Of a stretch of 48,850 nt of DNA, positions 28,132 to 42,673 are shown one piece after another. How positions within the stretch are numbered: the stretch's first letter is position 1; every line of letters begins with the position of its first letter. The notes under the pieces are model-generated. The model had not been told where the DNA came from. It was given only the letters and a program-made list of their open reading frames with translations, and did not search any database. This DNA is from Candidatus Eiseniibacteriota bacterium (GTDB taxonomy: Bacteria > Eisenbacteria > RBG-16-71-46): contig JBGPFC010000031.1 of the NCBI GenBank assembly GCA_041483195.1, positions 1 to 48,850 of the forward strand. Direction: 5' to 3'. The translations under genes and the position numbers were made by a program.

Positions 28132-31100
28132 CTACCTCAGCAACAGCATCTTCCGCTGCTGCGTGAGGCGTCCCAACTCGAGACGGTAGAAGTAGACGCC
28201 GCTTGCCATGCCCCTCACGGTGAGGTCCACCCCGTAACGTCCCGGGGTCTGGCGCTGATTCACCAGCGTCTGCACCACGCGGCCCTGCACGTCGAACAGC
28301 CTGAGCACCACCTGCTGCGTGGACGGGATCGAGTACACGATGCGCGTGTACCCGCGGACCGGGTTCGGGAAGTTCTGCGAGAGCGACAACACGCGTGGCA
28401 CGCTCGTGTCGATCTGCTCGACGCCGACCAGCAGCGAGTCGCTGCCGCCGAACTGATAGTAGCGCGCCGCGAATTCCTGCAGGTACTGGTTGGTGACGTC
28501 GGGATCGTGAATGATGAGCGTGTTCTCGTTGTTCGAGTTTTCCGCGGCGCTCGACCAGTTGTGCGAGCCGGTGAGGGTCACGGCATCCCAGGTCGGATTC
28601 TCCGCGTCGAACAGGCAGTACTTGTGGTGGAGCAGGCCGGAGGCCCCGGTCTTCAGGCGAATGTCCACCCCGTTCCCGAGCAGATACGAGTACTGCGATC
28701 CGGCGTCGGAGCTGGCGTCGAGATCGCCGCGCACCTTGATGCTCGCCAGGTGCCTGGCCACCAGCGCCGCCGAGATGTCGGTGCGCGTCAGCGTCAGCAG
28801 CTGGAACCCGATCGAGTGCTGCGCTGCGTTGATCCTCGAGATGATCTGAGAGGTCGGGGCGTCGGACGGGCTGAAGTAGCTCTCCACGTCGTGCCCACCG
28901 ATCACGAACTTGTGCGGCGTGTCGTCGAGCTTGCGGGCGCCGAACCGCGACGCGGCTGCATTCGGCGTGTCGGTGCCGCTCCCCCACATCTCGTTGAACT
29001 CGAGGGTGTACGCGTTCGCCAGCGCCAGGTCCTGGACTTCGATCGAGTTCTGGAAGTCGCTGTTGGTGCCGGGGTCGGTCGGGTTCCATGAGCCGGTCCA
29101 CACCCACGCGCTCTCGGCCGCGCCACCGCGCCCGTCGATGACGAAGAACTTGTTGTGCATCAGCCCGAGCCCGTTGTTGGTGGCGTCGAAGCGGTCGGTG
29201 ATCAGCGGAATGCCGCCGCCGCTGATCGCGGTGAAGCCGGAGCCGGTCTTGTTGTCCTCCTCGCAGATGACCCGCACCTTCACGCCCCGGTTCTTCGCGT
29301 TGATCAGCGCGGTGGCGAGCGTGCCGCCCGGAGTGCCGCTCAGGCTGTAGATCGCGGCATCGATCGAACGCTGCGCGTTGTCGAGGCGCGGCACCAGCCT
29401 CGCCGGGAGGTCCTGGTTGCCGTTCGCGGCATGAAGCCACGCGACGCTCGTGTTCACGCTCTTGTTGAAGTACACGTTCATCTGCCCGCTCGACTGCGCG
29501 GGCGATGCGGTGCTGAACAACCGCGCCGGGGCGAAGTTGACGCCGTTCACGTCCTCCGAGCCCACGCTGTAGTCGTACACCGTGGCGGGCGTGAGGCCGG
29601 TCACCGTCACCGCGTGGACCGTCACCGGCGTGGAATCGACGGCGCTGTCGCCGAGCGCGAGCGTGAGTCCGTAGCGGACGATGCTCGAGGACGCGACGTC
29701 GGTGGTCCAATGCAGCTGCACCGAGGTCGGCAGGATGTGGTCCTCGTATGGGGTCGTGAGAATGATCGGACCCGGGTGGGCGATGATGTCGGTCGAATCC
29801 CGCGGCGCGATCTCGTAGTCCGCGGTGTAGGGCGGGCCCGGCGCGGGCGTGCCGGGCTTGAACTGCTTCAGGATCCCGATCACGTCGAAGACGCTCGGCA
29901 CCGGCGGGAACGACGTCGGAATGAAGATGTTGGTGGTGCCGGATGGGTCGGTAATGGTCGACGTGGTCGAGTTGTAGGTCGCCCCGTCGATGCGGATCAG
30001 CCGCCCCTCGTTGGGCTCGGTGTAGTCGGGGTGGAAGGTGGCGGTGACTTCCGCGCAGGTGAGCACCAGGGGTTCGGGGATCGGGCGCCCGGTCGCGTGC
30101 CTCACGAGCAGCGAGAAGTCGGGCTGAAGCTCCGTGATGCCGCGGAACTGAGCAATCGAGCCGGTCACGGTGAGACTGTCGCCCGGCTGGATCGAGAACG
30201 GCGGCAGGTCAAAGCTGAAGATGTCGATCCCGGCGGTGCCATCCTGCAGGTAGAGATCGGTTCGGACGCTGCTCAGGTTGGCGGTGACGACGCCGGTCAC
30301 GGTGGCCTCGGCGCCCGGCGCGTAAGGAGAGGCGGCAACGCCGGAGGCGTCGTTCACGTGCACGACGACGATCGGCACCAGCTCGAGCACGCGCACGTGC
30401 GGATACACGAGAATCTGCGTGAGCGTTCCCGAGGCGACCGCGGTCTTCACCGCGAAGGTGGAGTTCCCGCTCGTGGGCGGCGAGGTGAGGTTCGCGATGG
30501 TGACGCTGCCGCTGTCGGCTGTGCTCAGCGTCGCCGAGGCGATGAACAGCGTGTCGCCGGCGATGGTCGGCGTCGCGCTCGCGAAGCCCGGCCCGCTCAG
30601 CACCACCGACCCCACGTCGTGCGACCACGTCCAGTCGGACGGCACGATGATCGAGAGGTTGGTGAGCGTGTACGTCGAGTCCTGCCCGAAGGCGATCTTC
30701 AGCGAATCGAGCGAGCGGCTGGTATACACGCTCACCGGCGCGATGCTCGCGCGCCCGGTTCCGTTTCCTCCCACCACGAAAGTCGGCTCCGGCGGATTGG
30801 AGCTGTTCTGCGGATTGCGGCCGTGGGTCTGGGTGACATAGTCGGCGGAATTGTTGTTCGTGTCCTGCCCGTTCCCGAGCAACTGGTGCGCTCCCCCGGC
30901 CGCAAGCGAATCGGCGGTGGACGTGGATATCGCCTTGCGCTCGACGCTGTTTCCGTTCGCGCTGATGCCGTGGTTCGGCGCGGCCGAGCCCTCGGGATTG
31001 ACCGCCGTACCCCAGCCCACCTTGTCCACCTCGACGGCGGACGTGTCGATCATGCGCTCGTGGCCGTTGTCGGCCATACCCTGTCCCGATCCCCACAACC

Positions 31101-31452
31101 CCGAGGTGTAGTCCGGGGTAGCCGAACTCGAGTACGTGCCAGCACTGTTGACGAGCAGGAAGAACCCGTGCGCCGCGATGGACGAATTCGCCGGCAGAAT
31201 CGCGCGGTCGCTCCAGGTGGTGCCATTGGTCGCCGCCGAGTACTGGAGCTTCCAGCCGGAGATGTCGATCGCGTTGTCGGTGGGGTTGTAAAGCTCGACG
31301 AATTCATCCGTGGCGGACGACGGGCCGCGCGTGGCGAACTCGCTGATCACGACGTGATTCGCGACGGCTCCCGCGGGGGGAACCACGGCCAGCATCAGGG
31401 CTGGGATCGCGAGCATGGCGAGAGCGCTGGAAAGGCGTGGCAGGAAGCGCAT
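28132..31452 (-). CDS. Secreted multidomain PLD-superfamily protein (lamin-tail domain, OB-like, Fn3-like, two HKD motifs, T9SS-type C-terminal domain); probable nuclease or phospholipase
   Basis: VVISEF..DEFVELYNPT; HNKFFVID and HHKYCLFD; QNFPNP...ASGVYFYRL. Confidence 0.88.
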   Translation of the reverse strand: MRFLPRLSSALAMLAIPALMLAVVPPAGAVANHVVISEFATRGPSSATDEFVELYNPTDNAIDISGWKLQYSAATNGTTWSDRAILPANSSIAAHGFFLLVNSAGTYSSSATPDYTSGLWGSGQGMADNGHERMIDTSAVEVDKVGWGTAVNPEGSAAPNHGISANGNSVERKAISTSTADSLAAGGAHQLLGNGQDTNNNSADYVTQTHGRNPQNSSNPPEPTFVVGGNGTGRASIAPVSVYTSRSLDSLKIAFGQDSTYTLTNLSIIVPSDWTWSHDVGSVVLSGPGFASATPTIAGDTLFIASATLSTADSGSVTIANLTSPPTSGNSTFAVKTAVASGTLTQILVYPHVRVLELVPIVVVHVNDASGVAASPYAPGAEATVTGVVTANLSSVRTDLYLQDGTAGIDIFSFDLPPFSIQPGDSLTVTGSIAQFRGITELQPDFSLLVRHATGRPIPEPLVLTCAEVTATFHPDYTEPNEGRLIRIDGATYNSTTSTITDPSGTTNIFIPTSFPPVPSVFDVIGILKQFKPGTPAPGPPYTADYEIAPRDSTDIIAHPGPIILTTPYEDHILPTSVQLHWTTDVASSSIVRYGLTLALGDSAVDSTPVTVHAVTVTGLTPATVYDYSVGSEDVNGVNFAPARLFSTASPAQSSGQMNVYFNKSVNTSVAWLHAANGNQDLPARLVPRLDNAQRSIDAAIYSLSGTPGGTLATALINAKNRGVKVRVICEEDNKTGSGFTAISGGGIPLITDRFDATNNGLGLMHNKFFVIDGRGGAAESAWVWTGSWNPTDPGTNSDFQNSIEVQDLALANAYTLEFNEMWGSGTDTPNAAASRFGARKLDDTPHKFVIGGHDVESYFSPSDAPTSQIISRINAAQHSIGFQLLTLTRTDISAALVARHLASIKVRGDLDASSDAGSQYSYLLGNGVDIRLKTGASGLLHHKYCLFDAENPTWDAVTLTGSHNWSSAAENSNNENTLIIHDPDVTNQYLQEFAARYYQFGGSDSLLVGVEQIDTSVPRVLSLSQNFPNPVRGYTRIVYSIPSTQQVVLRLFDVQGRVVQTLVNQRQTPGRYGVDLTVRGMASGVYFYRLELGRLTQQRKMLLLR

Positions 31453-31543
31453 GGAAGCTCCGCTCGAGGGATGGGAAATGCATCCGGGTTGTTGATCGAG
31501 CGTATCACGCGAACCGGAGCCCGGACTAGCGCAGCCTCGCATG

Positions 31544-31804
31544 TTACCCGCGCGGGCCCCTGAACCTCAGCTTCCCGATCAACACCGCACACGCCAGCCC
31601 CAGGCTGACGGCGTTGGCGGCCACCAGCGGCGCCGAGTGGATGCGCATGCCGTAGACGATCCACAGGATCACGCCCGCCACCATGGTCAGGTACATCGCC
31701 AGCGAGATGTCTTCGGCCGAGCGCCTCCGCCAGATGCGGACCACCTGCGGCACGAGCGCGAAGGTGGTGCACCCCGCCGCGGCGAACCCGAGCGTCTCGG
31801 TCAT
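31544..31804 (-). CDS. SemiSWEET (PQ-loop) sugar transporter
   Basis: 86 aa; TTFALVPQV; SAEDIS; LWIVYG; PLVAAN. Confidence 0.9.
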   Translation of the reverse strand: MTETLGFAAAGCTTFALVPQVVRIWRRRSAEDISLAMYLTMVAGVILWIVYGMRIHSAPLVAANAVSLGLACAVLIGKLRFRGPRG

Positions 31805-31812
31805 CGCGGGCG

Positions 31813-31926
31813 TCACGCGCGCTCCCGCCCGGGCGCGCCCGCCGCCCGCGTGCGCAACATCTCGCACACGCCGCCTTCGCCGAGGCGCTCCTCGAGCCGG
31901 AAATGAGAGAGCCGTTCGCCGATCAT
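31813..31926 (-). pseudogene. Remnant of a Ser/Thr kinase N-terminus
   Basis: MIGERLSHFRLEERLGEGG resembles kinase subdomain I, then similarity ends and a stop follows. Confidence 0.5.
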
Positions 31927-32011
31927 GTCCATCCATTGGGTGCCATCGCAGACGCGGCACCGCTCCAATTCGCTGTGGCCGAGCGCCTTCGGGGGATGTG
32001 CGAAGCGGCGC

Positions 32012-32040
32012 TTGCGCGAATCGCCCGTTCCGCCGATACT
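32012..32040 (+). promoter_or_regulatory. Sigma70 promoter of csp copy 1
   Basis: TTGCGC-17 bp-GATACT, conserved in all three copies. Confidence 0.75.
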
Positions 32041-32046
32041 GCTCCC

Positions 32047-32234
32047 GTCTACCGGTTGCCGTCGATGTGCCGCGAAGCGCCTTCTGATGCCGCCAGGTTG
32101 ATCCGGCGGCATTTTTGTTGGCCGCGCGGCTCTCGCGAATCGGAGACATCGGTCAGAGTGACCGAATCGTGGCCGCCACGTTCAGGCGGAGTTACTGCAA
32201 CCCTCGGGTCGCAGGTTACGCAAGGAGCAGTTCA
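32047..32234 (+). ncRNA. Conserved structured 5' leader of csp copy 1 (5' end approximate)
   Basis: Four hairpins shared with copies 2 and 3, the first followed by a U-tract. Confidence 0.65.
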
Positions 32235-32435
32235 GTGGCTATCGGAACCGTGAAGTGGTTCAACGAGGCGAAGGGTTTCGGCTTCATCTCCCAGGAAGGT
32301 GGCGAGGACGTGTTCGTCCATTTCTCCACGATCCAGGGCGACGGCTTCAAGACTCTGGCCGAAGGCGAGAAGGTGGAATTCGACGTGACGCGTGGGCCGA
32401 AGGGTCTGCAGGCGGCGAACGTCCGCAAGGCCTAG
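32235..32435 (+). CDS. cspA: Cold-shock protein, copy 1
   Basis: AAGGAG RBS; GTG start; KWFN, KGFGFI (RNP1), DVFVHF (RNP2); 66 aa. Confidence 0.97.
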
Positions 32436-32462
32436 GTCGTCTCGAGGAATCACCTCGCATCT

Positions 32463-32501
32463 AGAGGGCGGCGAGCTTCTGCTCCCGCCCTCTGTTGTTT
32501 T
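32463..32501 (+). terminator. Intrinsic terminator
   Basis: AGAGGGCGG...CCGCCCTCT stem followed by GTTGTTTT. Confidence 0.8.
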
Positions 32502-32550
32502 GGGGCCGCGCGACGGTCCGGACACCCGTCGCGCGGCCGCCTCACGTCCC

Positions 32551-33711
32551 CTACGGCTTGACCGTGAACGCCGCCGAGGCGCGCGTCGTGTCCCAGTCGA
32601 GGTTCAGCGTCCCGCCCTGCGCGTTCGGATCGATGCCGATCGTGAAACGCTCGACCGGGGTCGGCAGCGCGCTCACCGTCATGTCGATCGTGAAGAGATC
32701 CTTCGCCGCCTTGTGCTCGGTGCCCCACTGGCCGGTCTCGCCGTTGATGATGAGCTTCCAGTGGTTCGGCCCCGGGATGGTCCACAGCGTGTAGAAGCCC
32801 GCGGGCACCACCGTGCCGCCGAAGTCGAGCGTCTTGTCGGTCTTGAACTGCGTCGCCGCGTTCGCGCCGGTGCGCCACACCTCGCCGAACGGCTCGAGAC
32901 CGCCTAAGACCACGCGGCCGCGCTTGGCGGGCCGGCCGTAATCCACCCACAACGATGCGCCGCCGGCGTTGCCCGCGCGCACCGTATCGCGCGGCGAGAG
33001 CACGCCCAGGCCCGCGCCCGCCTGCTCGCGCGCCGCGAACAGGGCCGTCATCGCGTTCAGGTCGAGCGTCGCGACCCGCTCCGGACTGAACTTCGCGGTG
33101 CCCGAGATCGGGAGCACGCCGAGGATGTGGCCCGCCTTGTCCACCCGCGCGTGGAACACGTCCAGATGGCCGTTCGCAACCCCGATCGAATCGCGTCCCA
33201 GCTTGTGCAGGCTGAGCCAGTCGGCGTTCGGGAAGCCCACCATGTACATCGTCGTGCGCAGGCTGTCGCTCTTGCCCGCGATCAGCTTCATGAACAGCCC
33301 CTCGTAGCCCGCCCACGGGCTCGAGCCGGCCACCACCAGCGCGCCGGCCGGCATCGCGACATTCAGGTTCGTCGCCGGCGCGCTGCCGCTGTGGATCTGG
33401 AAGCGCATCGAGTCGCCGCCGAACGTTCCGTCGATGGTCTGCGTCGGGGTGGTGGCGCCCGGGGGCGTGACCACCATCGCGAAGTGGGAGATCGCGCCGT
33501 TCACGTAGTCGTACGTGAAGTGGCGCTGCAACACCCGGGGCGATCGGCCGACCTGGTCCACCTCGAGGCGCGAGGCCGTACGAACGTAGTGCTCGACACT
33601 GGTCGTGTCCGAGCCGAGCCGGACCACGAAGTTTCCGGAATCTTCGGCCGCCGCGGGGGCGGCGAGCGCGAGCGTGACGAGCGAAGCGAGGGCGAGGCGA
33701 TTGCACTTCAT
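32551..33711 (-). CDS. Exported DUF2911-domain protein
   Basis: Signal peptide; SPRDT..YGRPAKRGR..VWRTGANAAT..GQWG. Confidence 0.85.
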   Translation of the reverse strand: MKCNRLALASLVTLALAAPAAAEDSGNFVVRLGSDTTSVEHYVRTASRLEVDQVGRSPRVLQRHFTYDYVNGAISHFAMVVTPPGATTPTQTIDGTFGGDSMRFQIHSGSAPATNLNVAMPAGALVVAGSSPWAGYEGLFMKLIAGKSDSLRTTMYMVGFPNADWLSLHKLGRDSIGVANGHLDVFHARVDKAGHILGVLPISGTAKFSPERVATLDLNAMTALFAAREQAGAGLGVLSPRDTVRAGNAGGASLWVDYGRPAKRGRVVLGGLEPFGEVWRTGANAATQFKTDKTLDFGGTVVPAGFYTLWTIPGPNHWKLIINGETGQWGTEHKAAKDLFTIDMTVSALPTPVERFTIGIDPNAQGGTLNLDWDTTRASAAFTVKP

Positions 33712-33886
33712 GCGTGGCTCCTGGGTGGAGGACGGTTCGAGTCGGCCGCCGCGGATATTACTCCCACGGGTGCCCCCCCACGCCAGCCCCGCCCGAGTTT
33801 CGCGTTCTGAAATTTACAGGCGCCGATTCGATGCGGTAGTCTGAGGGCGTGCGCCCGGTCCGTCATGGACCACAGAGAATGGGGAG

Positions 33887-35047
33887 GTGCTCCTGGGTTC
33901 GAACACCTTCGGCATGCGGCTCGACGGAATCGCCGCCTATGCTCCCGACCAGGTCTGGAGCAACGGGCGCGTGGCTGCCCGCCTCCGCCTCGAGCGCATG
34001 CGCCTGCGCGAACGCAGGAGCCATGACGGTGCCGAACCGCTGACCGCGGAAGAGGCCAAGCTCTTCCAGAGCAGCGATCGCTGGGTGCGCCGATTCATCG
34101 GGTTCAACGAGCGACGCTTCGCCTGCGACGGAACGGGAACCATCGATCTCGCCACCCGCGCGGCGCGACAGCTGTTCGAGGGTTCCGGCCACTCCCCCGC
34201 CGACATCGACGGCATCATCGTGGGCAGCGTGACGCCCTCCTACCTCTACAGCCCACCGGACGCGGCGTTGCTCCAGGACGCGCTGGGCGTTCCGGTCTGG
34301 CAGGGAACGACGCCGCGCGAGATCAAGGGCGCAGACGTGTCGCTCGCGTGCAGCACCTGGGTCACCTCGCTGATGCTCTGCTACGCCCTGATCCGCTCCG
34401 GGATGGCGCGACGCATCCTCCTGATCGGCGCCGACCGGATGAGCGCCACCATCAACTGGCGGGACCGAAGCTTCGCGACCGTGCTGGGTGACGCCGGCAC
34501 CGCCACGCTGTGCACGGCGGTCGCGGAGGACGAAGACTGGTTCGCGCCATCGCGATTCTGGAGCTGGCTCGACGGCGGCCAGGCGGAGATGATCCGCACC
34601 CCGGTCGGAGGCTCGAGATTTCCCTCGCCGTCTCCCGAGGAGCTCGATGCCGGCAAGCACCGGCTCGCGATGGACGGCGCGGCGGTGCGCCAGGTGCTGG
34701 TTCCCTTCGTCGGCGGGCCTGCGATGGAAGCGGCGCTCGCCAAGGCGGCCTGGAATTTCGGCGACCTCGATGCCGCGGTGCTGCACGAGGCCAACCCGAT
34801 GCTCAACGAGTCCATCGTCCGCACCTGGCGCGAGCACGGATTCCGCGGCCGGGTGGTGACCGCCGGCGGCCGGTTCGGCAACACGACCAGCGCTTCCATT
34901 CCGCTCGCGCTGGCGTTGCATGCGTCGGAGCTGGCGATCGGCACGCGTCTCGGGATGGTCGGATTCGGCGGCGGGCTCTCCGCGAGCTTCGCGTTCGCCA
35001 CCGTTCGCCACGCGCTCAGGTCGTGGACGAACCTGGCCGAAGGCTGA
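33887..35047 (+). CDS. 3-oxoacyl-ACP synthase III (FabH-like) family protein
   Basis: Cys-His-Asn triad (LACS, LHEAN, FGNTTSASIP); GFGGGL; start uncertain. Confidence 0.88.
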   Translation: MLLGSNTFGMRLDGIAAYAPDQVWSNGRVAARLRLERMRLRERRSHDGAEPLTAEEAKLFQSSDRWVRRFIGFNERRFACDGTGTIDLATRAARQLFEGSGHSPADIDGIIVGSVTPSYLYSPPDAALLQDALGVPVWQGTTPREIKGADVSLACSTWVTSLMLCYALIRSGMARRILLIGADRMSATINWRDRSFATVLGDAGTATLCTAVAEDEDWFAPSRFWSWLDGGQAEMIRTPVGGSRFPSPSPEELDAGKHRLAMDGAAVRQVLVPFVGGPAMEAALAKAAWNFGDLDAAVLHEANPMLNESIVRTWREHGFRGRVVTAGGRFGNTTSASIPLALALHASELAIGTRLGMVGFGGGLSASFAFATVRHALRSWTNLAEG

Positions 35048-35128
35048 GGTCGAGCCGCCGCGCCGCGGCTCCAAGCCGCTGGCACCACGCGTTCTCGCTC
35101 GGAAACCGAGAAAATCTTCAGAATCCGC

Positions 35129-35157
35129 TTGCGCCAAACGCCGGTCCCGCCGATACT
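35129..35157 (+). promoter_or_regulatory. Sigma70 promoter of csp copy 2
   Basis: TTGCGC-17 bp-GATACT. Confidence 0.75.
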
Positions 35158-35163
35158 GCGTAT

Positions 35164-35350
35164 GTCTTCCGGTTGCCGTGGATGTGCTGCCAAGCGCCTT
35201 CAGATGCCGCCAGGTTGATCTGGCGGCTTTTTCGTTGGCCGGGCCACCTTCCCGATCGGAGACACCGGTCAGAGTGACCGAATCGTAGCCGCCACGTTGG
35301 GCGGAGAAACTGCGATCGCAAGGTCGCATGTCAATCGAAGGAGCAGCACA
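35164..35350 (+). ncRNA. Conserved structured 5' leader of csp copy 2 (5' end approximate)
   Basis: Same four hairpins; GCCGCCAG/CTGGCGGC stem plus TTTTT. Confidence 0.65.
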
Positions 35351-35551
35351 GTGGCTAGTGGAACCGTGAAGTGGTTCAACGAGGCGAAGGGTTTCGGCTT
35401 CATCTCTCAGGAAGGTGGCGAGGACGTGTTCGTCCATTTCTCCACCATCCAGGGTGACGGCTTCAAGACCCTGGCCGAAGGCGAGCGCGTCGAGTTCGAA
35501 GTGACCCGTGGGCCCAAGGGCCTGCAGACGTCGAGCGTCCGCAAGGCTTAG
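35351..35551 (+). CDS. cspA: Cold-shock protein, copy 2
   Basis: RNP1 and RNP2 motifs; 60/66 aa identical to copy 1 by manual count. Confidence 0.97.
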
Positions 35552-35578
35552 TTCGTCTCGGGGAAGCACTCGCATCGT

Positions 35579-35619
35579 GAGGGCGGCGAGCTTCGGCTCG
35601 CCGCCCTCTGTTGTTTTTT
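35579..35619 (+). terminator. Intrinsic terminator
   Basis: Perfect 13-bp stem, cUUCGg loop, then TGTTGTTTTTT. Confidence 0.9.
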
Positions 35620-35672
35620 CTCGAGCGATTGCTACGCTCGCCGGGTCCCTGGGTGGAACGGCGGAGCGAGCG

Positions 35673-36434
35673 ATGAAATTCCCGAGCACGAGAATTCCGG
35701 TGGCGGCGGGCCTGATGATCCTGCTGTGCGGGGCATCGAGCGCCCCGGCCCCGACGCTCGCCGCGCCTCCGATTCCGGCGAGCGCCGGTTCGACGCCCGA
35801 AGCCGGCGCCGCTCACGCGCCCGATCGGTTCTTCTACATGTTCATGGTCGGCTCGACGCGGTGGCCGGCCGTGCACGAGCTGGTCCCCGCCCCGGCGGCG
35901 TTCAGCCCGCGCTTCGGCGGCCGCTTCCAGCCATGGGGCTGGACCATCGAGCTGGCCTGGCAGCGCAGGGTGCGCGAGGCGCGCGGCACCGGCGTGTTCG
36001 TCGGAGGCGACTTCGGGAGCTTCGCGCACGGATCCGGATGGAGAAACGTCGGGGTCGACGCGTTCACCGGCAGGCCGGTTCGAGGCGAGATGTTCGCGAC
36101 CGCGGGTCACCTCACGCTGAGCGGGCGCATGGTGTGGCGCGAAGGGAAGGCCCTCACCCTCCATTGCGCATCCGGCGCCGGGCTCTACCTGGTTCGGATC
36201 AAGGACAACATCGAGGGGACTGGGATGACGGAGACCGGCAACCACGCCGCCTCCCCCGGCGGCTACGTCGGAGCCGGACTCGACCGGCTCGTGTGGCGCA
36301 GGGCCGGGATCGGCCTGCACATCGAGGGCCGCGTTCACGTCTTCGAGTTCGACGATCTGGGTCCGGGCTTCCCGGGCCAGCGGGCATCGGGTCCGCTCTA
36401 TCAGCTGGCGGGAGCGCTCTCGTTCTGGAGCTGA
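35673..36434 (+). CDS. Hypothetical exported protein, probable outer-membrane beta-barrel
   Basis: Signal-like N-terminus; alternating Gly/aromatic strands; aromatic C-terminus (ALSFWS). Confidence 0.6.
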   Translation: MKFPSTRIPVAAGLMILLCGASSAPAPTLAAPPIPASAGSTPEAGAAHAPDRFFYMFMVGSTRWPAVHELVPAPAAFSPRFGGRFQPWGWTIELAWQRRVREARGTGVFVGGDFGSFAHGSGWRNVGVDAFTGRPVRGEMFATAGHLTLSGRMVWREGKALTLHCASGAGLYLVRIKDNIEGTGMTETGNHAASPGGYVGAGLDRLVWRRAGIGLHIEGRVHVFEFDDLGPGFPGQRASGPLYQLAGALSFWS

Positions 36435-38053
36435 GGCGCGGCCCCGGCCTCGAGCACGCACACCAGCCCGCGAATGAGCTGGTCGCGCTCGCGGCGCAGG
36501 TCCGCTTCGGCCGCCGACACGCAGCGGAAGCCGTGGCCCTCGCAGAGCGCTGCGAGGTACGCACGCGCATGCCGGTAGCGTCCGGATGACGCCAGCACGA
36601 AGCGATCGACGGCGTCATCGCCGCTTTCGACCGTGAACGCGAAGAGCCCCCCCGTGCGCAATGCGCGGCGAACGGAGGCGAACAGCGGCGCCAGCTCGCC
36701 GAAGTAGCTCAGCACGTCGGCGGCCACCGCGATGTCGTAGCGGCCGGCCTCGGCGGCCGCCAGGAACTCGACGAGATCGCGCGCCTCGAGCGCGTCGTAG
36801 ACGCCAAGCGCCCGCGCCTTCTGCAGCATCTTCGGGGAGAGATCGACCCCCGTGAGCCGGCGCGAGAGCGGCTTGAGCCTCGCCCCCATCAGTCCGGTTC
36901 CGCAGCCCAGGTCCAGCACCTCGCAGGGCGCGCGGTCCCGCGGCCGGGCGCTCGCGAGCGCCGCCTCGAGCAGGTCCGGCGCCCGATACTCGAGCTGCTC
37001 GGTCAGGTGCCGGTCGAACTTGTCGGCGTACGCGTCGAACAGATCGCGAACGTAGCGGGCGGGCGGGCGTTCCGACTGGACGCCCCGGATCACGTTGACG
37101 AAGTGGCCGGCCGCGCCGTGGTCGGGATCGAGCACGAGCGCGCGCTCGAGGCACCGCAGGGCCTCCTCGTTCAGCCCCTGCCTGCTCAGCGCGATCCCCA
37201 GATTCGCGAGTACGTCCGCCGAATCCGGCCGCAGCTCGGCCGCGCGCCGCATGGCCCGCAGCGCGTCCTCCATCCGGCCGTCCTCCTGCAGCGTGAGGCC
37301 GAGATTGTTGAAGGCGTCGGCGCTCCGCGATCCGAGCGCGATCGCCCGCTCGAAGCAGGCCGCGGCCTCGGCGAGGCGTCCCACGCGATAGTGCACGTTC
37401 CCCATGTTGTAGTGCGCCTCGTGAAATTCCGGCGCGATCCCGGCGGCACCCTGAAATTCGGCCAGCGCGGCATCGAGCTCGCCCCGGTCGAAGTGCACGC
37501 TGCCGAGATTGAGGCGCGCCTCGGCGGAATCCGGGTCGAGCGACCGCGCCTGCCGCAACGCGTCTTCGGCTTCATCGAGTCGTCCGCACAACCTCAGGGC
37601 ATTGCCGAGACCGCTCCATGCGGGGGCCAGCGCGGGTTCGAGCCTCACGGCCTCGCGATAGGCATCCGCAGCTTCGGCACTCCTGCCCTGCCGCGTGAGC
37701 GCATCGCCGAGATTGCCGAAAGCTGTCGCGTAGTCCGGTTTCAGCGCCAGCGCGGCCCGGTAGCTCGCTTCCGCCTCCGCGCACCGGCCGAGCGATTCGA
37801 GCGCCAGGCCCAGGTTGCAATGCATCTGCGGATGCGATCTCAACGACAGCGCGCGCCCGATCAGCCGGAGCGCGCCCTCGAAGTCGCCGCTCTGGTACGC
37901 GACGGTGCCCAGCAGGTGGAGCGCATCGACGTTGTCGGCGTCCGCTTCGATCACCTTCTGATAGAGCTCGCGCGCGAGATCGAGCTGCCCCGCCTGCTGG
38001 TAGCGCATGGCGAGGTCCACCGCCTGCGGAAGCGTGAGGCTCGAGGAGTTCAT
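36401..38053 (-). CDS. TPR-repeat protein with class I SAM-dependent methyltransferase
   Basis: Multiple TPRs; LFDAYADKFD; VLDLGCGTG; GVDLSPKML; SGRYRH. Confidence 0.9.
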   Translation of the reverse strand: MNSSSLTLPQAVDLAMRYQQAGQLDLARELYQKVIEADADNVDALHLLGTVAYQSGDFEGALRLIGRALSLRSHPQMHCNLGLALESLGRCAEAEASYRAALALKPDYATAFGNLGDALTRQGRSAEAADAYREAVRLEPALAPAWSGLGNALRLCGRLDEAEDALRQARSLDPDSAEARLNLGSVHFDRGELDAALAEFQGAAGIAPEFHEAHYNMGNVHYRVGRLAEAAACFERAIALGSRSADAFNNLGLTLQEDGRMEDALRAMRRAAELRPDSADVLANLGIALSRQGLNEEALRCLERALVLDPDHGAAGHFVNVIRGVQSERPPARYVRDLFDAYADKFDRHLTEQLEYRAPDLLEAALASARPRDRAPCEVLDLGCGTGLMGARLKPLSRRLTGVDLSPKMLQKARALGVYDALEARDLVEFLAAAEAGRYDIAVAADVLSYFGELAPLFASVRRALRTGGLFAFTVESGDDAVDRFVLASSGRYRHARAYLAALCEGHGFRCVSAAEADLRRERDQLIRGLVCVLEAGAAPQLQNESAPAS

Positions 38054-38080
38054 GGGCGCCGGCGGGCCGCTTCGATCGGG

Positions 38081-38545
38081 CTACGCCCGTCCCTCGCGCA
38101 CCATGCCTTCGAGGATGCGCTCGATCTTGGTGGCCTGCGCCTCGAGGTGCAGCAGGATGGCTTCGATCTCCCGTTCGGCCTTGACGTTCACCTGGTAGTC
38201 CGATTCGGCGCGCGCCTCGGAGTGCCGGCTCTGGAGATTCTGGCCGACCATGATCAGCGGCATCAGGCAGATCTGGATCATGTTCGAGATGAACAGCCAC
38301 AGCACGAACGCCGGATAGGGATCGAAGCGCGACTGCCTGGGGCCGAGGGCGTTCCAGCCCAGCCACAACAGCGTCCAGGTGACGATGATGAGGAAGAAGC
38401 CCATCGATCCCACGTGATCGGTGATCCAGATCGCGACCCGTTCGAGGGGCCTGAGACGCTGCGCGTGGATCTCGTTCACGTTCCGCAACGGAGCGCGGAG
38501 CGCCTTGAGCTTCTCGAGTGAAGGCGGGTGCGGGATCTCGTCCAT
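38081..38545 (-). CDS. DUF1003 membrane protein
   Basis: VGSMGFF; FDPYP; PLIMVGQN; DYQVNVKAE. Confidence 0.88.
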   Translation of the reverse strand: MDEIPHPPSLEKLKALRAPLRNVNEIHAQRLRPLERVAIWITDHVGSMGFFLIIVTWTLLWLGWNALGPRQSRFDPYPAFVLWLFISNMIQICLMPLIMVGQNLQSRHSEARAESDYQVNVKAEREIEAILLHLEAQATKIERILEGMVREGRA

Positions 38546-38593
38546 GGCATCTTCCTTTCGGGGGGCGTGGCGAGGGCGTCCGGCGAACGACAG

Positions 38594-38953
38594 TTATTCG
38601 TTCGGCTCGGCGTTGCGCCTCGGCGCCTGCGGGATTCCGTAGAGGAGGATGGGCCGGAAGCCGTGCTCGCGCGCGTGGAGCTCGCCGATCCGCTGGACTC
38701 CGAACCGTCCCAGCTGCAGGGCGAGGTCGAAGCGCCCACAGCGTAGCGCGCGGCGCACCTGCCAGGCCACCGCATACTCGACGAACGTGATGCGATCCTC
38801 GGTGGTGACCTCCGCGAACTCGATGTCGCGGAGCCCCTCCTCCACCTCCGCCATCAGCCGATCGGGATCGAGCGCCTCCGCGTCCGACGGCTGGGCGTCC
38901 GAGCGCGGCCACGAGCGCCGAATGTGTCTGTCCCACAATGATGGAAGTCGCAT
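38594..38953 (-). CDS. Hypothetical protein
   Basis: Fills the gap between two same-strand genes with host-like codons; no motif recognised. Confidence 0.45.
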   Translation of the reverse strand: MRLPSLWDRHIRRSWPRSDAQPSDAEALDPDRLMAEVEEGLRDIEFAEVTTEDRITFVEYAVAWQVRRALRCGRFDLALQLGRFGVQRIGELHAREHGFRPILLYGIPQAPRRNAEPNE

Positions 38954-38978
38954 CGCCGGCGAGCCCCCGGATGGCGCG

Positions 38979-40958
38979 CTACGCGGCGCGCGCCCGCTCC
39001 CACACGCGGATGGGAAGGATGATGGCCTGCATGCCCAGAAACTGGAGCCGGCGCTGGATCGAGAACGCCGTCTCGTGGTGGAGCATGCGCGTGAACAGAT
39101 TCTCGCGCTGGAACACCAGCTGTCCCGTGAACACCACCGGGCGCCGGAATTCCCGCATCAGGTCCACGCACAGCGCCTCGAGCTCGTGCACCAGATCGGT
39201 CCCCAGCGCGTAGCGGTACTCGGCGTACACGCCCATGCGCTGGGCGAGTTGGGCGTATTGCTCGAGGTCGCCGCGCACCTTCCGCTCCAGCGCGCTCAGC
39301 TCGTCCACCCCCTTGAACTGCGCGGAATCCACGAAGCCCACCGAGACGAACACGAAGTTCTTGAAGTGGCGCGGGAAGAGGCGCAGCACCGAGAGCAACG
39401 TGTGCACGCCGAGGCCGCTGTAGCTCTCGACCAGCACGATCGCGGTGGATCCGTCGACCGCGAGCTGAGGCGGGGTCTTGGGCTCGGGTAGCGGCAGGTT
39501 GAGCAGCGCGTCGTCGAGCGATGCGAGATTGCGGCGCACGCGCTGATAGTGGTGCCGGATGGCGAAGCACACGCCGATCAGCGCCGAGGTGGCCAGCAGC
39601 GTGATCCAGCCTCCCTCCCGGAACTTGAGGGTCGCCGTGATCGCGAGGATGGTCGCGGTCACCAGCGCTCCCACCGTGTTCACGATCAGGCGCCGCCGCC
39701 AGTGCGCCTCGGTCCTGCGCACCGCGAGCCAGTGGCGGGCCATGCCCATCTGGCTGAGCGTGAAGGTCATGAACACGTTGATCGAGTACATGACCACCAG
39801 CAGCCCGACCGCGCCCCGGGTGTAGGCGAGCACCGCCCCCGCCGCGAGCCCCATGGTGACCACGCCGTTCTGCGTGACGAAGCGCTCGGAGAGGTTCTTG
39901 TAGCGCTTCGGCACCCATTCGTCGGCCGCCATCGCGGCCAGCGTGCGCGGGCCATCGAGGAAACCGGTCTGCGCCGCGACGAACAGCAGCGCGCCCTCCG
40001 AGATCAGCGTGAAGCCGACCACCGCCGGGCCGATCGCGAATCCTCCCAGGTTCCAGCCGTGGGTGAGCAGGTCCCAGAGCGAGGCGTTGAGCGTCTTGCC
40101 GCTCTCGAACTGCACGTTGTTGAGGAGGTAGCACAGCAGGATGCCGCCGGCCGTGAAGGCGAGCGAGCACGACATGTAGAGCATGGTGCGCTTGCCGTTT
40201 TCGACGCGCGGCTGACGCAGGATGCCGACGCCGTTGCTCACCGCTTCGATCCCGGTGAACGTGCCGCCTCCGAGCGAGAACGCGCGGAGGATGATCACCC
40301 CCACGCCGATCAGGCCCAGCTGGGAGACCGCCTGGTGGCTCTCCTCGACCGTGCTCGGGATCAGGTGCCCGAGGTCGCGGCTGTGGCGCAGCACCCCGAA
40401 GGCGATCAGCCCGATGTGGCTCACGATGAAGGCGAGGAAGATCGGCGTGAGCACGTAGACCGACTCCTTGACCCCGCGCAGGTTGAGCAGGATGAGCGCG
40501 CCCACCACCGCGTACTCGGAGGGCAGCTTGAGCCCCTGCAGGGGAACCGGGATGAACGAGAAGATCGCGTCGCAGCCGGCCGCCACCGAGATCGAGATCG
40601 TGAGGATGTAGTCGACGACCAGCGCGCCCCCCGAGATCACGCCCGGCGTCGGCCCGAGCAGCTTGCTCGCGACCAGGTAACCACCGCCGCCGGTGGGGAA
40701 CTGCTCGATGATCTGGCTGTAGGAGGCCGAGATCAGGAAGACGGTCGCGACGATCGCGCCCACCAGGTAGAGCGCGAGGTGACGGTGCGCGCCGAGCTGG
40801 CGAAAGATTTCTTCGGGGCCATAGCACGACGACGAGAGGCCGTCCGAGCCCAGGCCCACCCACGCGAAGAACGCGATCAACGCCAGGTGCTGGTGGATCC
40901 GCGGGTCGAAGAGGTTCTTGGGCCCGCCGAGGAGCAGGGCGCGCAGCCTCTCGATCAT
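38979..40958 (-). CDS. APC family permease, KimA-like probable K+ transporter
   Basis: DGLSSSCYGPEE; GGGGY; DYILT; NLRGVKES; TGIEAVSNGV; cytoplasmic C-terminal domain. Confidence 0.9.
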   Translation of the reverse strand: MIERLRALLLGGPKNLFDPRIHQHLALIAFFAWVGLGSDGLSSSCYGPEEIFRQLGAHRHLALYLVGAIVATVFLISASYSQIIEQFPTGGGGYLVASKLLGPTPGVISGGALVVDYILTISISVAAGCDAIFSFIPVPLQGLKLPSEYAVVGALILLNLRGVKESVYVLTPIFLAFIVSHIGLIAFGVLRHSRDLGHLIPSTVEESHQAVSQLGLIGVGVIILRAFSLGGGTFTGIEAVSNGVGILRQPRVENGKRTMLYMSCSLAFTAGGILLCYLLNNVQFESGKTLNASLWDLLTHGWNLGGFAIGPAVVGFTLISEGALLFVAAQTGFLDGPRTLAAMAADEWVPKRYKNLSERFVTQNGVVTMGLAAGAVLAYTRGAVGLLVVMYSINVFMTFTLSQMGMARHWLAVRRTEAHWRRRLIVNTVGALVTATILAITATLKFREGGWITLLATSALIGVCFAIRHHYQRVRRNLASLDDALLNLPLPEPKTPPQLAVDGSTAIVLVESYSGLGVHTLLSVLRLFPRHFKNFVFVSVGFVDSAQFKGVDELSALERKVRGDLEQYAQLAQRMGVYAEYRYALGTDLVHELEALCVDLMREFRRPVVFTGQLVFQRENLFTRMLHHETAFSIQRRLQFLGMQAIILPIRVWERARAA

Positions 40959-41046
40959 CGGCGTTGGCCCTCGCGCGGCATCTCACGCGCGGGGAATGGG
41001 CGGCGGCAGCTCGCGTGCATATTCGAGCGTTCATTGAACCCCGCGC

Positions 41047-41067
41047 GGGTGTAAAAATGGCGTAAGG
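41047..41067 (-). promoter_or_regulatory. KdpE-box-like direct repeat
   Basis: Minus strand CCTTACGCCATTTTTACACCC; half-sites 11 bp apart, upstream of the permease. Confidence 0.45.
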
Positions 41068-41159
41068 AATTACTCGCGGCGGATTCGGGGCGCATCGAGG
41101 CCGACGCGGCTGGGCTCTCGGCCGGCCGGCCGGCGCGGGCAGGCACCCGCAAAACGCCC

Positions 41160-41188
41160 TTGCGTAAACCCCCGGTTCCGCCGACACT
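41160..41188 (+). promoter_or_regulatory. Sigma70 promoter of csp copy 3
   Basis: TTGCGT-17 bp-GACACT. Confidence 0.7.
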
Positions 41189-41194
41189 AGGGGT

Positions 41195-41382
41195 GTTCGC
41201 TGGTTGCCGTGGATGTGCCGCAAAGCGCGTTCTGATGCCGCCAGGATGATCTGGCGGTTTTTTTGTTGGGCGCGCGGCTCATGGCAATCGGGGACACCGG
41301 TCAGAGTGACCGAATCGTCGCCGCCACGTTCAGGCGGAGTTGCCGCGACTCTCGGGTCGCGGGTTACGCAAGGAGCAGCACA
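41195..41382 (+). ncRNA. Conserved structured 5' leader of csp copy 3 (5' end approximate)
   Basis: Same four hairpins; GCCGCCAG/CTGGCGGT stem plus T-tract. Confidence 0.65.
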
Positions 41383-41583
41383 GTGGCTACTGGAACCGTG
41401 AAGTGGTTCAACGAGGCGAAGGGTTTCGGATTTATCACCCAGGAAGGTGGCGAGGACGTGTTCGTCCACTTCTCCGCGATTCAGGGTGAGGGGTTCAAGA
41501 CCCTGGCCGAAGGCGAGAAGCTGGAGTTCGATGTCACCAAGGGCCCGAAGGGCCTGCAGGCGGCAAACGTCCGCAAGGCCTAG
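41383..41583 (+). CDS. cspA: Cold-shock protein, copy 3
   Basis: RNP1 and RNP2 motifs; 60/66 aa identical to copy 1 by manual count. Confidence 0.97.
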
Positions 41584-41609
41584 GTCGCCTCGAGGAATCA
41601 CCACGCAGT

Positions 41610-41649
41610 GCGAAGGGCGGGGAGCGAAAGCGACCCGCCCTTCGCGTTT
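41610..41649 (+). terminator. Intrinsic terminator
   Basis: GCGAAGGGCGGG...CCCGCCCTTCGC 12-bp stem followed by a short GTTT. Confidence 0.7.
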
Positions 41650-41700
41650 GGCGCGGGGGCCCCGCAGCACTCTCCGCCGTCCGGCTCCCGTAGATCCCCC

Positions 41701-41732
41701 TTGACCCTGAACCTCGCTTCAGGGCCTATGCT
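41701..41732 (+). promoter_or_regulatory. MerR-type promoter/operator
   Basis: TTGACC-20 bp-TATGCT with dyad CCCTGAA-N6-TTCAGGG (41705-41724). Confidence 0.8.
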
Positions 41733-41753
41733 CCGAGACGAAGGGAGGATCTC

Positions 41754-42164
41754 ATGCGAATCGGATCGGTCGCGGCACAGTCGGGAGTAAGCGCACAGAC
41801 TCTACGGTTCTACGAAAAGCGCGGCATTCTCGCCCCGCCCGCTCGCCTCACGTCGGGCTACCGCGATTACCCGGATGACACGGTGCGCATCGTGCGCTTC
41901 ATCCGCCGGGCTCAGCGGCTCGGATTCAGCCTCGTCGAGCTGCGGAGCCTGGTGCGTAGCGGAGCTGGAATCGGAGGGAACTGGCGAAGGCTGCGCCCGG
42001 CCTTCGAGCGAAAGACCGCGCAGTTGGAGCGCGACGCCCAGCTCCTTCAAGCTTCGATCGCTGAACTTCGAAGTTGTCTCGAGAGCTGCGGCTGCTGCAA
42101 TCCGGGAAAACCCTGCCGCAGCCCTCGGAGCGCCGTGCCGCAAACTCGCGGTCGCAGCACCTAG
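41754..42164 (+). CDS. MerR-family metal-responsive regulator
   Basis: MRIG...TLRFYEKRG...GYRDY...AQRLGFSL; Cys-rich C-terminus. Confidence 0.92.
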   Translation: MRIGSVAAQSGVSAQTLRFYEKRGILAPPARLTSGYRDYPDDTVRIVRFIRRAQRLGFSLVELRSLVRSGAGIGGNWRRLRPAFERKTAQLERDAQLLQASIAELRSCLESCGCCNPGKPCRSPRSAVPQTRGRST

Positions 42165-42229
42165 CACACCCGGTTGCAGCCCGACCCATCGGCCACAGCC
42201 CCACCGTCTTCAGAAAGGGAGGCGAAGCA

Positions 42230-42673
42230 ATGAAATTGCCTGTCGTCATCGGAGCGGTCTTCGCGTTGATCGGCGCGCTCGCGCTCGCCCGGACCGCATT
42301 CGCCGGAACACGGGCCGTGGGGTCTCCCGCGACATCTGCGCGGTCGGCGCAGGAGACTCCTTTCGCCTGCAACGTTTCGGTCTTCACGCCTGCGATGAGG
42401 AAGCGTCACTTCGAAGAGCTGGGCCCCAGGCTGCGTTTGGCGAGGACCGCCGTGCGCGAATTGCCAGACGGATATGAGTTCGCGTTTGGCGCCGACTCGT
42501 CCACGTATCAAATGCTCTCGGAGTGGATCTTCCAGGAGCGCTCGTGTTGCCCATTCTTCGATCTCAGCCTCCGGCTGGACCGCGAGAGCGGCCCCCTCTG
42601 GCTGCGGCTGGGAGGACGGCCGGGAGTGAAGGAGTTCATCCGAGCGGAATTTCCTCCGGGGTGGTTCAAGTAG
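42230..42673 (+). CDS. Exported hypothetical protein with ACN...ERSCCPFF motif (putative metal binding)
   Basis: GGAGG RBS; signal peptide; vicinal Cys pair; directly after merR-family gene. Confidence 0.7.
   Translation: MKLPVVIGAVFALIGALALARTAFAGTRAVGSPATSARSAQETPFACNVSVFTPAMRKRHFEELGPRLRLARTAVRELPDGYEFAFGADSSTYQMLSEWIFQERSCCPFFDLSLRLDRESGPLWLRLGGRPGVKEFIRAEFPPGWFK

Follow-up and report, generated by a model that had tools for sequence, protein, structure and literature searches.

A 48,850-nt stretch of DNA from a member of Candidatus Eiseniibacteriota (contig JBGPFC010000031.1, the whole stretch being referred to hereafter as the window) carries three monocistronic csp genes on its + strand, with GTG starts at 32235, 35351 and 41383, and each follows a leader of ~190 nt, raising the question of what so long a leader does ahead of a cold-shock gene. 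To our knowledge, nearly all that is understood of cold-shock control comes from E. coli and Bacillus, where it operates through mRNA stability, through translation and, according to work since 2024, through Rho-dependent attenuation; we know of no cultured members of the source phylum. A sequence-only reading of the window had proposed the leaders as a new cis-regulatory RNA, built of a GC-rich hairpin with a U-tract (hairpin a) and three further hairpins (b, c and d), and acting as a temperature- or Csp-controlled attenuator. Here, we ask whether this leader belongs to a known RNA family, how widely it occurs, which of its parts are conserved as structure and how it might act.

A conserved leader precedes each csp gene of the window

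Each csp gene encodes a 66-aa cold-shock domain (CSD) protein (csp1 matches Pfam PF00313 CSD with E 8e-30), and the mean identity among the three leaders is 87%. A covariance-model search of the window's own genome (G000; 4.17 Mb in 93 contigs) revealed a fourth csp leader copy outside the window (G000:C7:19279-19469); the genome thus holds four leader copies and six CSD-encoding loci, the two loci lacking a leader being a more distant paralogue on contig C5 and a locus on contig C20. The latter (G000:C20:58820-58999, - strand) has an upstream open frame with Cys-X2-Cys pairs (identified by eye) and, judging from this arrangement, may encode a fusion protein whose N-terminal part is zinc-ribbon-like.

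The sequence-only reading had placed transcription start near 32047, upstream of hairpin a. The promoter-like elements of leader 1 (TTGCGC, 17 nt, GATACT; Table 1) agree with both points, the GATACT box ending 6 nt ahead of GTCTACCGG and so putting the inferred start at ~32047; equivalent sites lie upstream of leaders 2 and 3. A generic sigma-70 scan left the leader 1 site unflagged. By eye, and uncounted, most main-type leaders of the family display a -35/-10 arrangement ending ~6-7 nt before GTCTTCGG, with other spacings in a few (e.g. L006).

A hairpin and U-rich terminator closes each of the three window csp genes. These elements (32464-32503, 35579-35618 and 41611-41651) are mutually alike, sharing GAGGGCGGCGAGC...GCTC.CCGCCCTC, plus TGTTGTTTT in two of them; because of this likeness, we consider that the csp gene duplications took leader, coding sequence and terminator as one unit. 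The neighbours of the csp genes are unrelated to them (a PLD-like protein with a Por secretion tail, a FabH-like enzyme, a TPR-methyltransferase, a permease and a MerR regulator). A 1136-aa protein encoded at 28132-31542 (- strand) combines PLD-like, lamin-tail and fibronectin-like domains with a Por secretion (T9SS) C-terminal sorting tail.

Table 1. Positions of the csp leaders and their elements in the window.
Feature	Position	Strand	Remarks
Leader 1 promoter-like site	32012..32040	+	TTGCGC (32012-32017), 17-nt spacer, GATACT (32035-32040); read from sequence
csp1 leader (5' UTR)	32047..32234	+	model R1 match 32043-32240, 178.8 bits
G/U-rich 5' box	32047..32073	+	GTCTACCGGTTGCCGTCGATGTGCCGC; first ~11 nt are the 5' strand of closing helix P1
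Hairpin a + U-tract	32089..32121	+	intrinsic-terminator-like, tip of 5' domain; GCCGCCAGG/CCGGCGGC at 32089-32110, T-tract ATTTTTGTTGG at 32111-32121; stem and U-tract kept in 60/60 homologues
P1 3' strand	32137..32147	+	GAATCGGAGAC; closes the ~100-nt 5' domain (MFE folding)
Hairpin b	32150..32164	+	CGGTCAGAGTGACCG (CGGTCA GAG TGACCG); identical in the three window copies
Hairpin c	32173..32189	+	CCGCC...GGCGG; helix 4, both-side changes in 3/5 pairs
Hairpin d	32195..32214	+	upstream of the ribosome binding site; helix 5, both-side changes in 5/5 pairs
csp1 Shine-Dalgarno and start codon	32222..32237	+	AAGGAG + GTG; read from sequence
csp1 CDS	32235..32435	+	66 aa, CSD by Pfam
csp1 3' terminator-like hairpin	32464..32503	+	followed by TGTTGTTTTGG; read from sequence; csp2 equivalent flagged by consensus scan
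csp2 leader	35164..35350	+	hairpin a 35206-35227, then T-tract TTTTTCGTTG; CDS 35351-35551
csp3 leader	41195..41382	+	hairpin a 41237-41258, then T-tract TTTTTTGTTG; CDS 41383-41583

The leader matches no catalogued RNA family

At gathering thresholds, Rfam 15 returned zero matches over the whole window. Under permissive settings, one notable match appeared, that of csp1 to RF01766 (cspA), at 68.7 bits against a gathering score of 78; the alignment (32165-32496) is good mainly over the CSD coding sequence and 3' terminator, and leaves 32047-32164 uncovered. With its score below threshold and the 5' UTR part lacking homology, the leader falls outside RF01766, to which leaders of relatives scored 44.5, 44.4 and 22.4 bits. 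The prediction that this is not an existing Rfam family is thus borne out for both the window and the relatives' leaders, which gave no gathering-score match. In the literature, we found no described leader of such kind and no cold-shock study of Eisenbacteria; the phrase "cold shock protein" occurs 0 times in the accessible main text of RNA-discovery surveys, whose supplements may list motifs. The csp leader is a new RNA family, matching no catalogued one.

The 5' domain of one relative (L140 382-483, - strand) shows sub-threshold similarity to ncS54 (RF02871; 24.5 bits vs 43) and to Betaproteobacteria_toxic_sRNA (RF02278; 20.1 bits vs 50), belonging to neither family; the similarity rests mainly on the terminator hairpin. 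The likeness of this domain to the Burkholderia ncS54 and toxic sRNA (a UGUCU-like 5' end followed by a terminator hairpin) is probably convergence.

Distribution in the family and the phylum

Covariance model R1, built from 10 leaders, located the leader in 86/89 genomes and 27/28 genera of the family (1-5 copies each), and a csp ORF lies downstream of 60/60 distinct full-length matches. A wider sample of the phylum (151 genomes from 17 families, strict filters, the unpublished genome G026 included in the tally) placed the leader in four families, namely f1 (57/59 genomes), f3 (5/6), f2 (2/3) and f10 (31/32), and in none of the 13 others. Three Candidatus Eisenbacteria records carry leaders identical to matches in G001 (of the window's genus), G096 and G098. 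This survey depended on the covariance model, given that a BLAST-type DNA search of 41 relatives detected the leader in 4 genomes only; a 17-base motif scan of genome contigs returned, among the matches listed, mostly chance hits, with three fetched loci being true leaders.

The prevailing leader of f10 (L167-L178) is a variant type (AUUCGGUAGCAGGUGGAAGUAC...) whose upstream region differs, and which co-occurs with the main type within f1 genomes (L205, L212). Upstream of the variant leaders, the motif CTGAATC ... GCATCCAA takes the place of the TTGCNN/GATACT promoter, and on the strength of this motif a different sigma factor may act there. At one further locus (L005 1500-2800; G015:C8), a DEAD-box helicase gene comes directly after a tandem pair of csp genes, both of which have a leader and a terminator of their own.

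Hairpin a and its U-tract have the anatomy of an intrinsic terminator

All four hairpins described in the sequence-only reading lie at the positions it had given for the three leaders, and the GC-rich stem and U-tract that it had picked out in each of them extend to all 60 distinct homologues. The stem of hairpin a is predicted at -10.9 to -19.6 kcal/mol (median -15.8; 60/60), and the U-tract directly abuts its GC-rich base, with 5 or more U among the 8 nt past the stem in 60/60 and 6 or more in 47/60; by sequence anatomy, the element belongs to the class of intrinsic (Rho-independent) terminators in 60/60 distinct homologues. It sits about 40-75 nt past the inferred start. Some U-tracts in the window's own genus are interrupted (CUUUCUGUU, UUCGUGUU). 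The stem covaries, GCCGCC/GGCGGC being replaced by GCCACC/GGUGGC or CCGCA/UGCGG (G-C to A-U compensation). Columns of the U-tract carry 1.7, 2.0 and 1.6 bits, whereas the strand facing it in the long hairpin described below has a mean of 0.54 bits; because the U-tract letters are conserved and the facing strand is not, the U's are not kept merely for pairing.

A similar hairpin and U-rich signal is used at the 3' ends of the window's csp genes. A terminator consensus scan flagged hairpin a of leaders 2 and 3, and over 31000-42500 gave one further site (the csp2 3' terminator), a count without significance since 3 sites compare with a mean of 5.6 in shuffles. By all sequence criteria, then, hairpin a and its U-tract qualify as an intrinsic terminator, at which transcription would be expected to end; in a read-through RNA, the same hairpin is predicted to form the tip of a long helix, where a purely structural role is possible.

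Hairpins a to d covary

The CGGTCA-GAG-TGACCG element, claimed to be invariant across the three window leaders, is indeed identical in all copies. Among relatives, the loop of hairpin b varies and its stem covaries via U-A to C-G changes and G-U pairs (helix 3); this hairpin also occurs in the helicase- and hydroxylase-type leaders presented below. Hairpins c and d are csp-specific, and the stem of hairpin d reads CTGC/GCAG in some window leaders vs CCGC/GCGG in others. Over the 60 distinct homologues, hairpins a-d have standard pairs in 93.4% of cells and both-side changes in 14/25 pairs, with a covariation score of 0.302 vs 0.131 in shuffles (reached by 0/500 shuffles, with no slid register near), it being noted that the alignment was fitted to these hairpins and so favours them. 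The covariation proposed earlier is upheld on this alignment, and a conserved, structured leader RNA is well supported by the comparison of homologues.

The first ~100 nt close into one long imperfect hairpin

MFE folding reveals a feature absent from the sequence-only reading, namely a single long, imperfect hairpin that takes in the first ~100 nt and has hairpin a as its tip. The 5' end (GUCUUCGGUUG) is predicted to pair with a stretch just ahead of hairpin b (GAAUCGGAGAC in csp1), giving the closing helix P1. This 5' domain is closed in 57/59 homologues vs 475/1770 dinucleotide shuffles, has a mean z-score of -4.3 relative to such shuffles (59 homologues) and includes 15% G-U among its predicted pairs; the sense strand folds at -46.8 kcal/mol vs -36.9 kcal/mol for the antisense, and is the better of the two in 55/59.

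The two strands of the domain differ in conservation, with the 5' box averaging 1.34 bits/column vs 0.37-0.80 for its pairing strand. Because of register shifts and this nearly invariant 5' strand, P1 shows no column-wise covariation (on an unfitted alignment, 72.3% of its cells pair, equal to shuffles), and RNAalifold on the model alignment did not recover it; we instead used energy tests, in which each 5' strand was paired with its own (cognate) or another homologue's 3' strand. The whole 5' and 3' strands yield -29.1 kcal/mol for cognate vs -24.4 kcal/mol for non-cognate combinations, and the same preference holds for the P1 duplex (-12.2 vs -9.7 kcal/mol) and the P2 duplex (-10.8 vs -9.2 kcal/mol), with 0/5000 permutations reaching the cognate value in each case. 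Pairing of the central box (GUGGAUGUG) with the 3' strand is marginal (216/5000 permutations). A local hairpin of the box (UGGAUGU with GCGUUCA) pairs in 73.6% and 79.8% of cells, equal to shuffles, and its 3 double-change pairs are reached by 36/500 shuffles.

Folding predictions place the terminator as the default state

The sequence-only reading had suggested that upstream TGCCGT and TGCYGC segments could pair with the 3' arm of hairpin a; these segments are not conserved across the family, and the suggestion is unsupported. An alternative antiterminator, in which the 5' end pairs with the loop and 5' arm of hairpin a, is present in the MFE structure of 58/59 truncated RNAs. Its energy (-11.6 kcal/mol) compares with -11.5 for non-cognate combinations and -10.0 (sd 2.9) for shuffles, and its columns pair in 89.6% of cells vs 89.0% in the shuffle control; in the folding model, this pairing appears physically possible in most homologues, without statistical support.

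A switch by temperature, as had also been proposed, is not predicted from equilibrium folding, since the terminator stem in nascent RNA has a predicted probability of ~0.94 from 5 to 45 C; at 37 C, the best fold lacking the terminator trails by a mean of 7.5 kcal/mol. Predicted folding thus makes the terminator the default, such that regulation would need a factor or kinetics.

The leader also differs from an SD-masking RNA thermometer, in that the SD core is predicted to be mostly open (mean P(unpaired) 0.59 at 37 C and 0.55 at 10 C, 59 homologues) and the shared module is far from the SD in helicase leaders. Most family members lack a CCUUC/SD pairing that RNAalifold had returned for 10 sequences. 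The predicted openness of the SD, the distance of the shared part from the ribosome binding site and the restriction of hairpins c and d to csp leaders together speak against translational masking, which leaves attenuation of transcription and stability governed by the 5' end as candidates that may coexist.

In relatives, helicase and hydroxylase-like genes carry the 5' module too

Model R2 comprises the 5' part alone, up to the U-tract. Searched in five genomes, its matches all fall in csp leaders except for a weak one (L203) ahead of a hydroxylase-like ORF. Across 40 relatives, 18 matches were fetched that were absent among the R1 matches listed, of which 8 have csp downstream (L205, L208, L212, L213, L216, L219, L220, L221), 4 a DEAD-box helicase ORF (L206, L209, L211 and L210, the last cut by the contig end), 2 a fatty-acid-hydroxylase-like ORF (L207, L214) and 1 no csp gene (L222), the other 3 being chance-like (L215, L217, L218). 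Assignment of the helicases is by Pfam DEAD (1e-30 for L206, 6e-38 for L211); the L207 ORF scores 32.2 bits against Pfam FA_hydroxylase (cut-off 31), and that of L214 has no Pfam match and is 64% identical to L207.

In the helicase leaders and in L207, the promoter, box, hairpin a, U-tract, P1 closing strand and hairpin b are all retained, and beyond them an unrelated sequence (about 140 nt at its most extended) runs to the start codon. L214 has the box and hairpin alone, directly ahead of the start codon, with no room for a P1 closing strand. The window's own genome has three helicase genes, none of which carries the 5' module; a homologue of the hydroxylase was not found there.

At L222 (G021:C156), a copy of the 5' domain comprising the box, hairpin a, U-tract, P1 strand and a hairpin-b-like stem runs directly into a convergent gene; it may be a remnant, or else a small RNA in its own right.

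Csp proteins, a DEAD-box helicase and a membrane-lipid enzyme make up the classic cold-shock set in E. coli and Bacillus. Because the genes downstream of the 5' module correspond to this set, the module is very likely a cold-related signal, and the pattern suggests that csp, helicase and hydroxylase-like genes share a cold-shock regulon signal. The presence of the module ahead of helicase and hydroxylase-like genes, in some of them at a distance of 140 nt or more from the start codon, favours control at transcription or RNA stability, and its placement ahead of non-csp genes favours a regulon over a purely csp-specific feedback loop.

Proposed mechanism and alternative explanations

We propose that the element is the leader of an Eisenbacteria-like cold-shock regulon, with termination at the U-tract by default and read-through needing a factor or cold kinetics, Csp being the likeliest factor; we would put the chances of this reading at about even. 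It builds on the conservation, structure, terminator-like anatomy and gene association observed above, from which we infer termination itself and a response, of either direction, to Csp or temperature. Transcription would start ~7 nt past the conserved -10 box, at GUCUUCGG, and the first ~125 nt would constitute the module, comprising the G/U-rich conserved 5' box, the GC-rich hairpin with its immediate U-tract, the P1 3' strand and the 7-bp hairpin b. RNA polymerase would by default terminate at the U-tract, such that expression of csp (and, in relatives, of the DEAD-box helicase and hydroxylase-like gene) would need read-through, provided by a factor or by cold kinetics; in the RNA that is read through, the less conserved 3' strand would pair back to the 5' end to give one long imperfect hairpin. 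The likeliest factor would be Csp itself, which may load on the pyrimidine/G-rich 5' box. From there it could act by antitermination, interfering with or melting the terminator hairpin, or by feedback termination, occupying the 5' end so that a competing fold is prevented, and the scheme allows either direction.

Precedents exist for the components of this scheme. Csp proteins reduce intrinsic termination (accessible text of PMC9765468, citing Bae et al. 2000), and the E. coli cspA/B/G leaders are described as Rho-dependent attenuators under the control of temperature and CspA (accessible text of PMC12360218). The leader start GUCUUCG is one letter off the published Bacillus CspB consensus GUCUUUG/U (given as GTCTTTG/T in the accessible part of PMC1904285), a resemblance only, which we treat as a lead. 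Antitermination by Csp of its own gene would constitute positive feedback, and so a further brake would be needed.

The main competitor to attenuation is that the module acts as a 5' stability element, whereby a 5'-terminal hairpin shields the mRNA from 5'-end-dependent decay and tightens in the cold, hairpin a and the U-tract being a helix tip or protein site; E. coli cspA mRNA is known to be stabilised in the cold. P1 starting within a few nt of the 5' end, a domain that is closed in 57/59 with an average z-score of -4.3 and 15% G-U pairs, the co-variation of P1 strands in energy tests and the distance of the module from the SD in helicase leaders would all suit such a role. It leaves unexplained, however, both the conservation of a U-tract against an unconserved opposite strand and the GC-rich stem base abutting U's in 60/60, and the hydroxylase-type L214 retains box and hairpin with no room for the closing strand. 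We judge shielding of the 5' end unlikely, and favour attenuation over it because the terminator anatomy is invariant, although the two are compatible and not exclusive. A smaller chance still attaches to the terminated RNA of ~75-80 nt (5' box plus terminator hairpin) being the functional product, a trans-acting small RNA for which csp mRNA is the read-through species: the sRNA-like anatomy (a conserved 5' region capable of being single-stranded, then a terminator) and the L222 copy of the 5' domain without a csp gene behind it agree with this, but the five-genome R2 search placed all matches in csp leaders save the weak one ahead of a hydroxylase-like ORF, and the sub-threshold similarity to ncS54 and Betaproteobacteria_toxic_sRNA, which might otherwise be counted in its favour, is far below threshold and mainly due to the terminator.

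It is also conceivable that the box and the palindromic hairpin b work as operators in the DNA, bound by a transcription factor, rather than as RNA structure, the box lying at +1 to +27 and hairpin b being, as DNA, an inverted repeat (CCGGTCA NNN TGACCGG). Against this, hairpins a and b contain G-U pairs (for instance, at two base pairs of hairpin b, G-U in 6/60 and U-G in 11/60), the sense strand folds ~10 kcal/mol better than the antisense (55/59), hairpin b is >100 nt downstream of the start and the box lacks dyad symmetry by eye, making operators highly improbable. Attenuation could, in its most elaborate form, amount to a regulon-wide Csp-sensing riboregulator, wherein the 5' box would be a dedicated Csp sensor deciding whether the terminator fires, coordinating csp paralogues, the DEAD-box helicase and a membrane-lipid enzyme, freeing a conserved ~75-nt RNA as by-product or second output, and having evolved independently of the Rho-dependent enterobacterial switches; we advance this fuller version tentatively, as possible but rather doubtful.

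Relation to known cold-shock leaders and significance

The E. coli cold box is a short conserved element at the extreme 5' end of several cold-shock mRNAs, and is thought to be a site of Csp-dependent attenuation. The Eisenbacteria 5' box is alike in being short, conserved and placed at the 5' terminus, but differs in sequence and is coupled to a canonical terminator and a closing helix. The leader bears no sequence or structure homology to cspA/RF01766, and in contrast to the cspA thermoregulator, no SD-masking alternative fold is predicted.

As far as the accessible text of PMC12360218 describes them, the Rho-dependent attenuators of E. coli/Salmonella cspA/B/G resemble the present leader in several respects: a long csp leader (~160-190 nt) with a conserved 5'-proximal element, premature termination within the leader as the control point (here proposed), Csp as likely feedback factor, and a control common to other cold-shock genes. 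The termination signal differs, looking intrinsic here (hairpin and U-tract) rather than Rho-dependent. A GC hairpin and U-tract ahead of cold-induced genes is also the arrangement in Csp antitermination at metY-rpsO and sRNA terminators (accessible text of PMC9765468); those terminators, however, are not a dedicated conserved leader family and do not lie in csp genes' own leaders; an action of Csp on hairpin a is a proposal.

The Eisenbacteria leader is thus compact and conserved, with a canonical terminator common to csp, helicase and hydroxylase-like genes, and is a ready candidate for a new Rfam family; its ~125-nt module offers a simple system for Csp antitermination and the effects of temperature. 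Were the leader an attenuator, Csp-sensed premature termination in csp leaders would have arisen at least twice, using different termination machinery, and if the riboregulator reading were true, the family would hold an intrinsic-terminator counterpart of the enterobacterial Rho-dependent csp switches.
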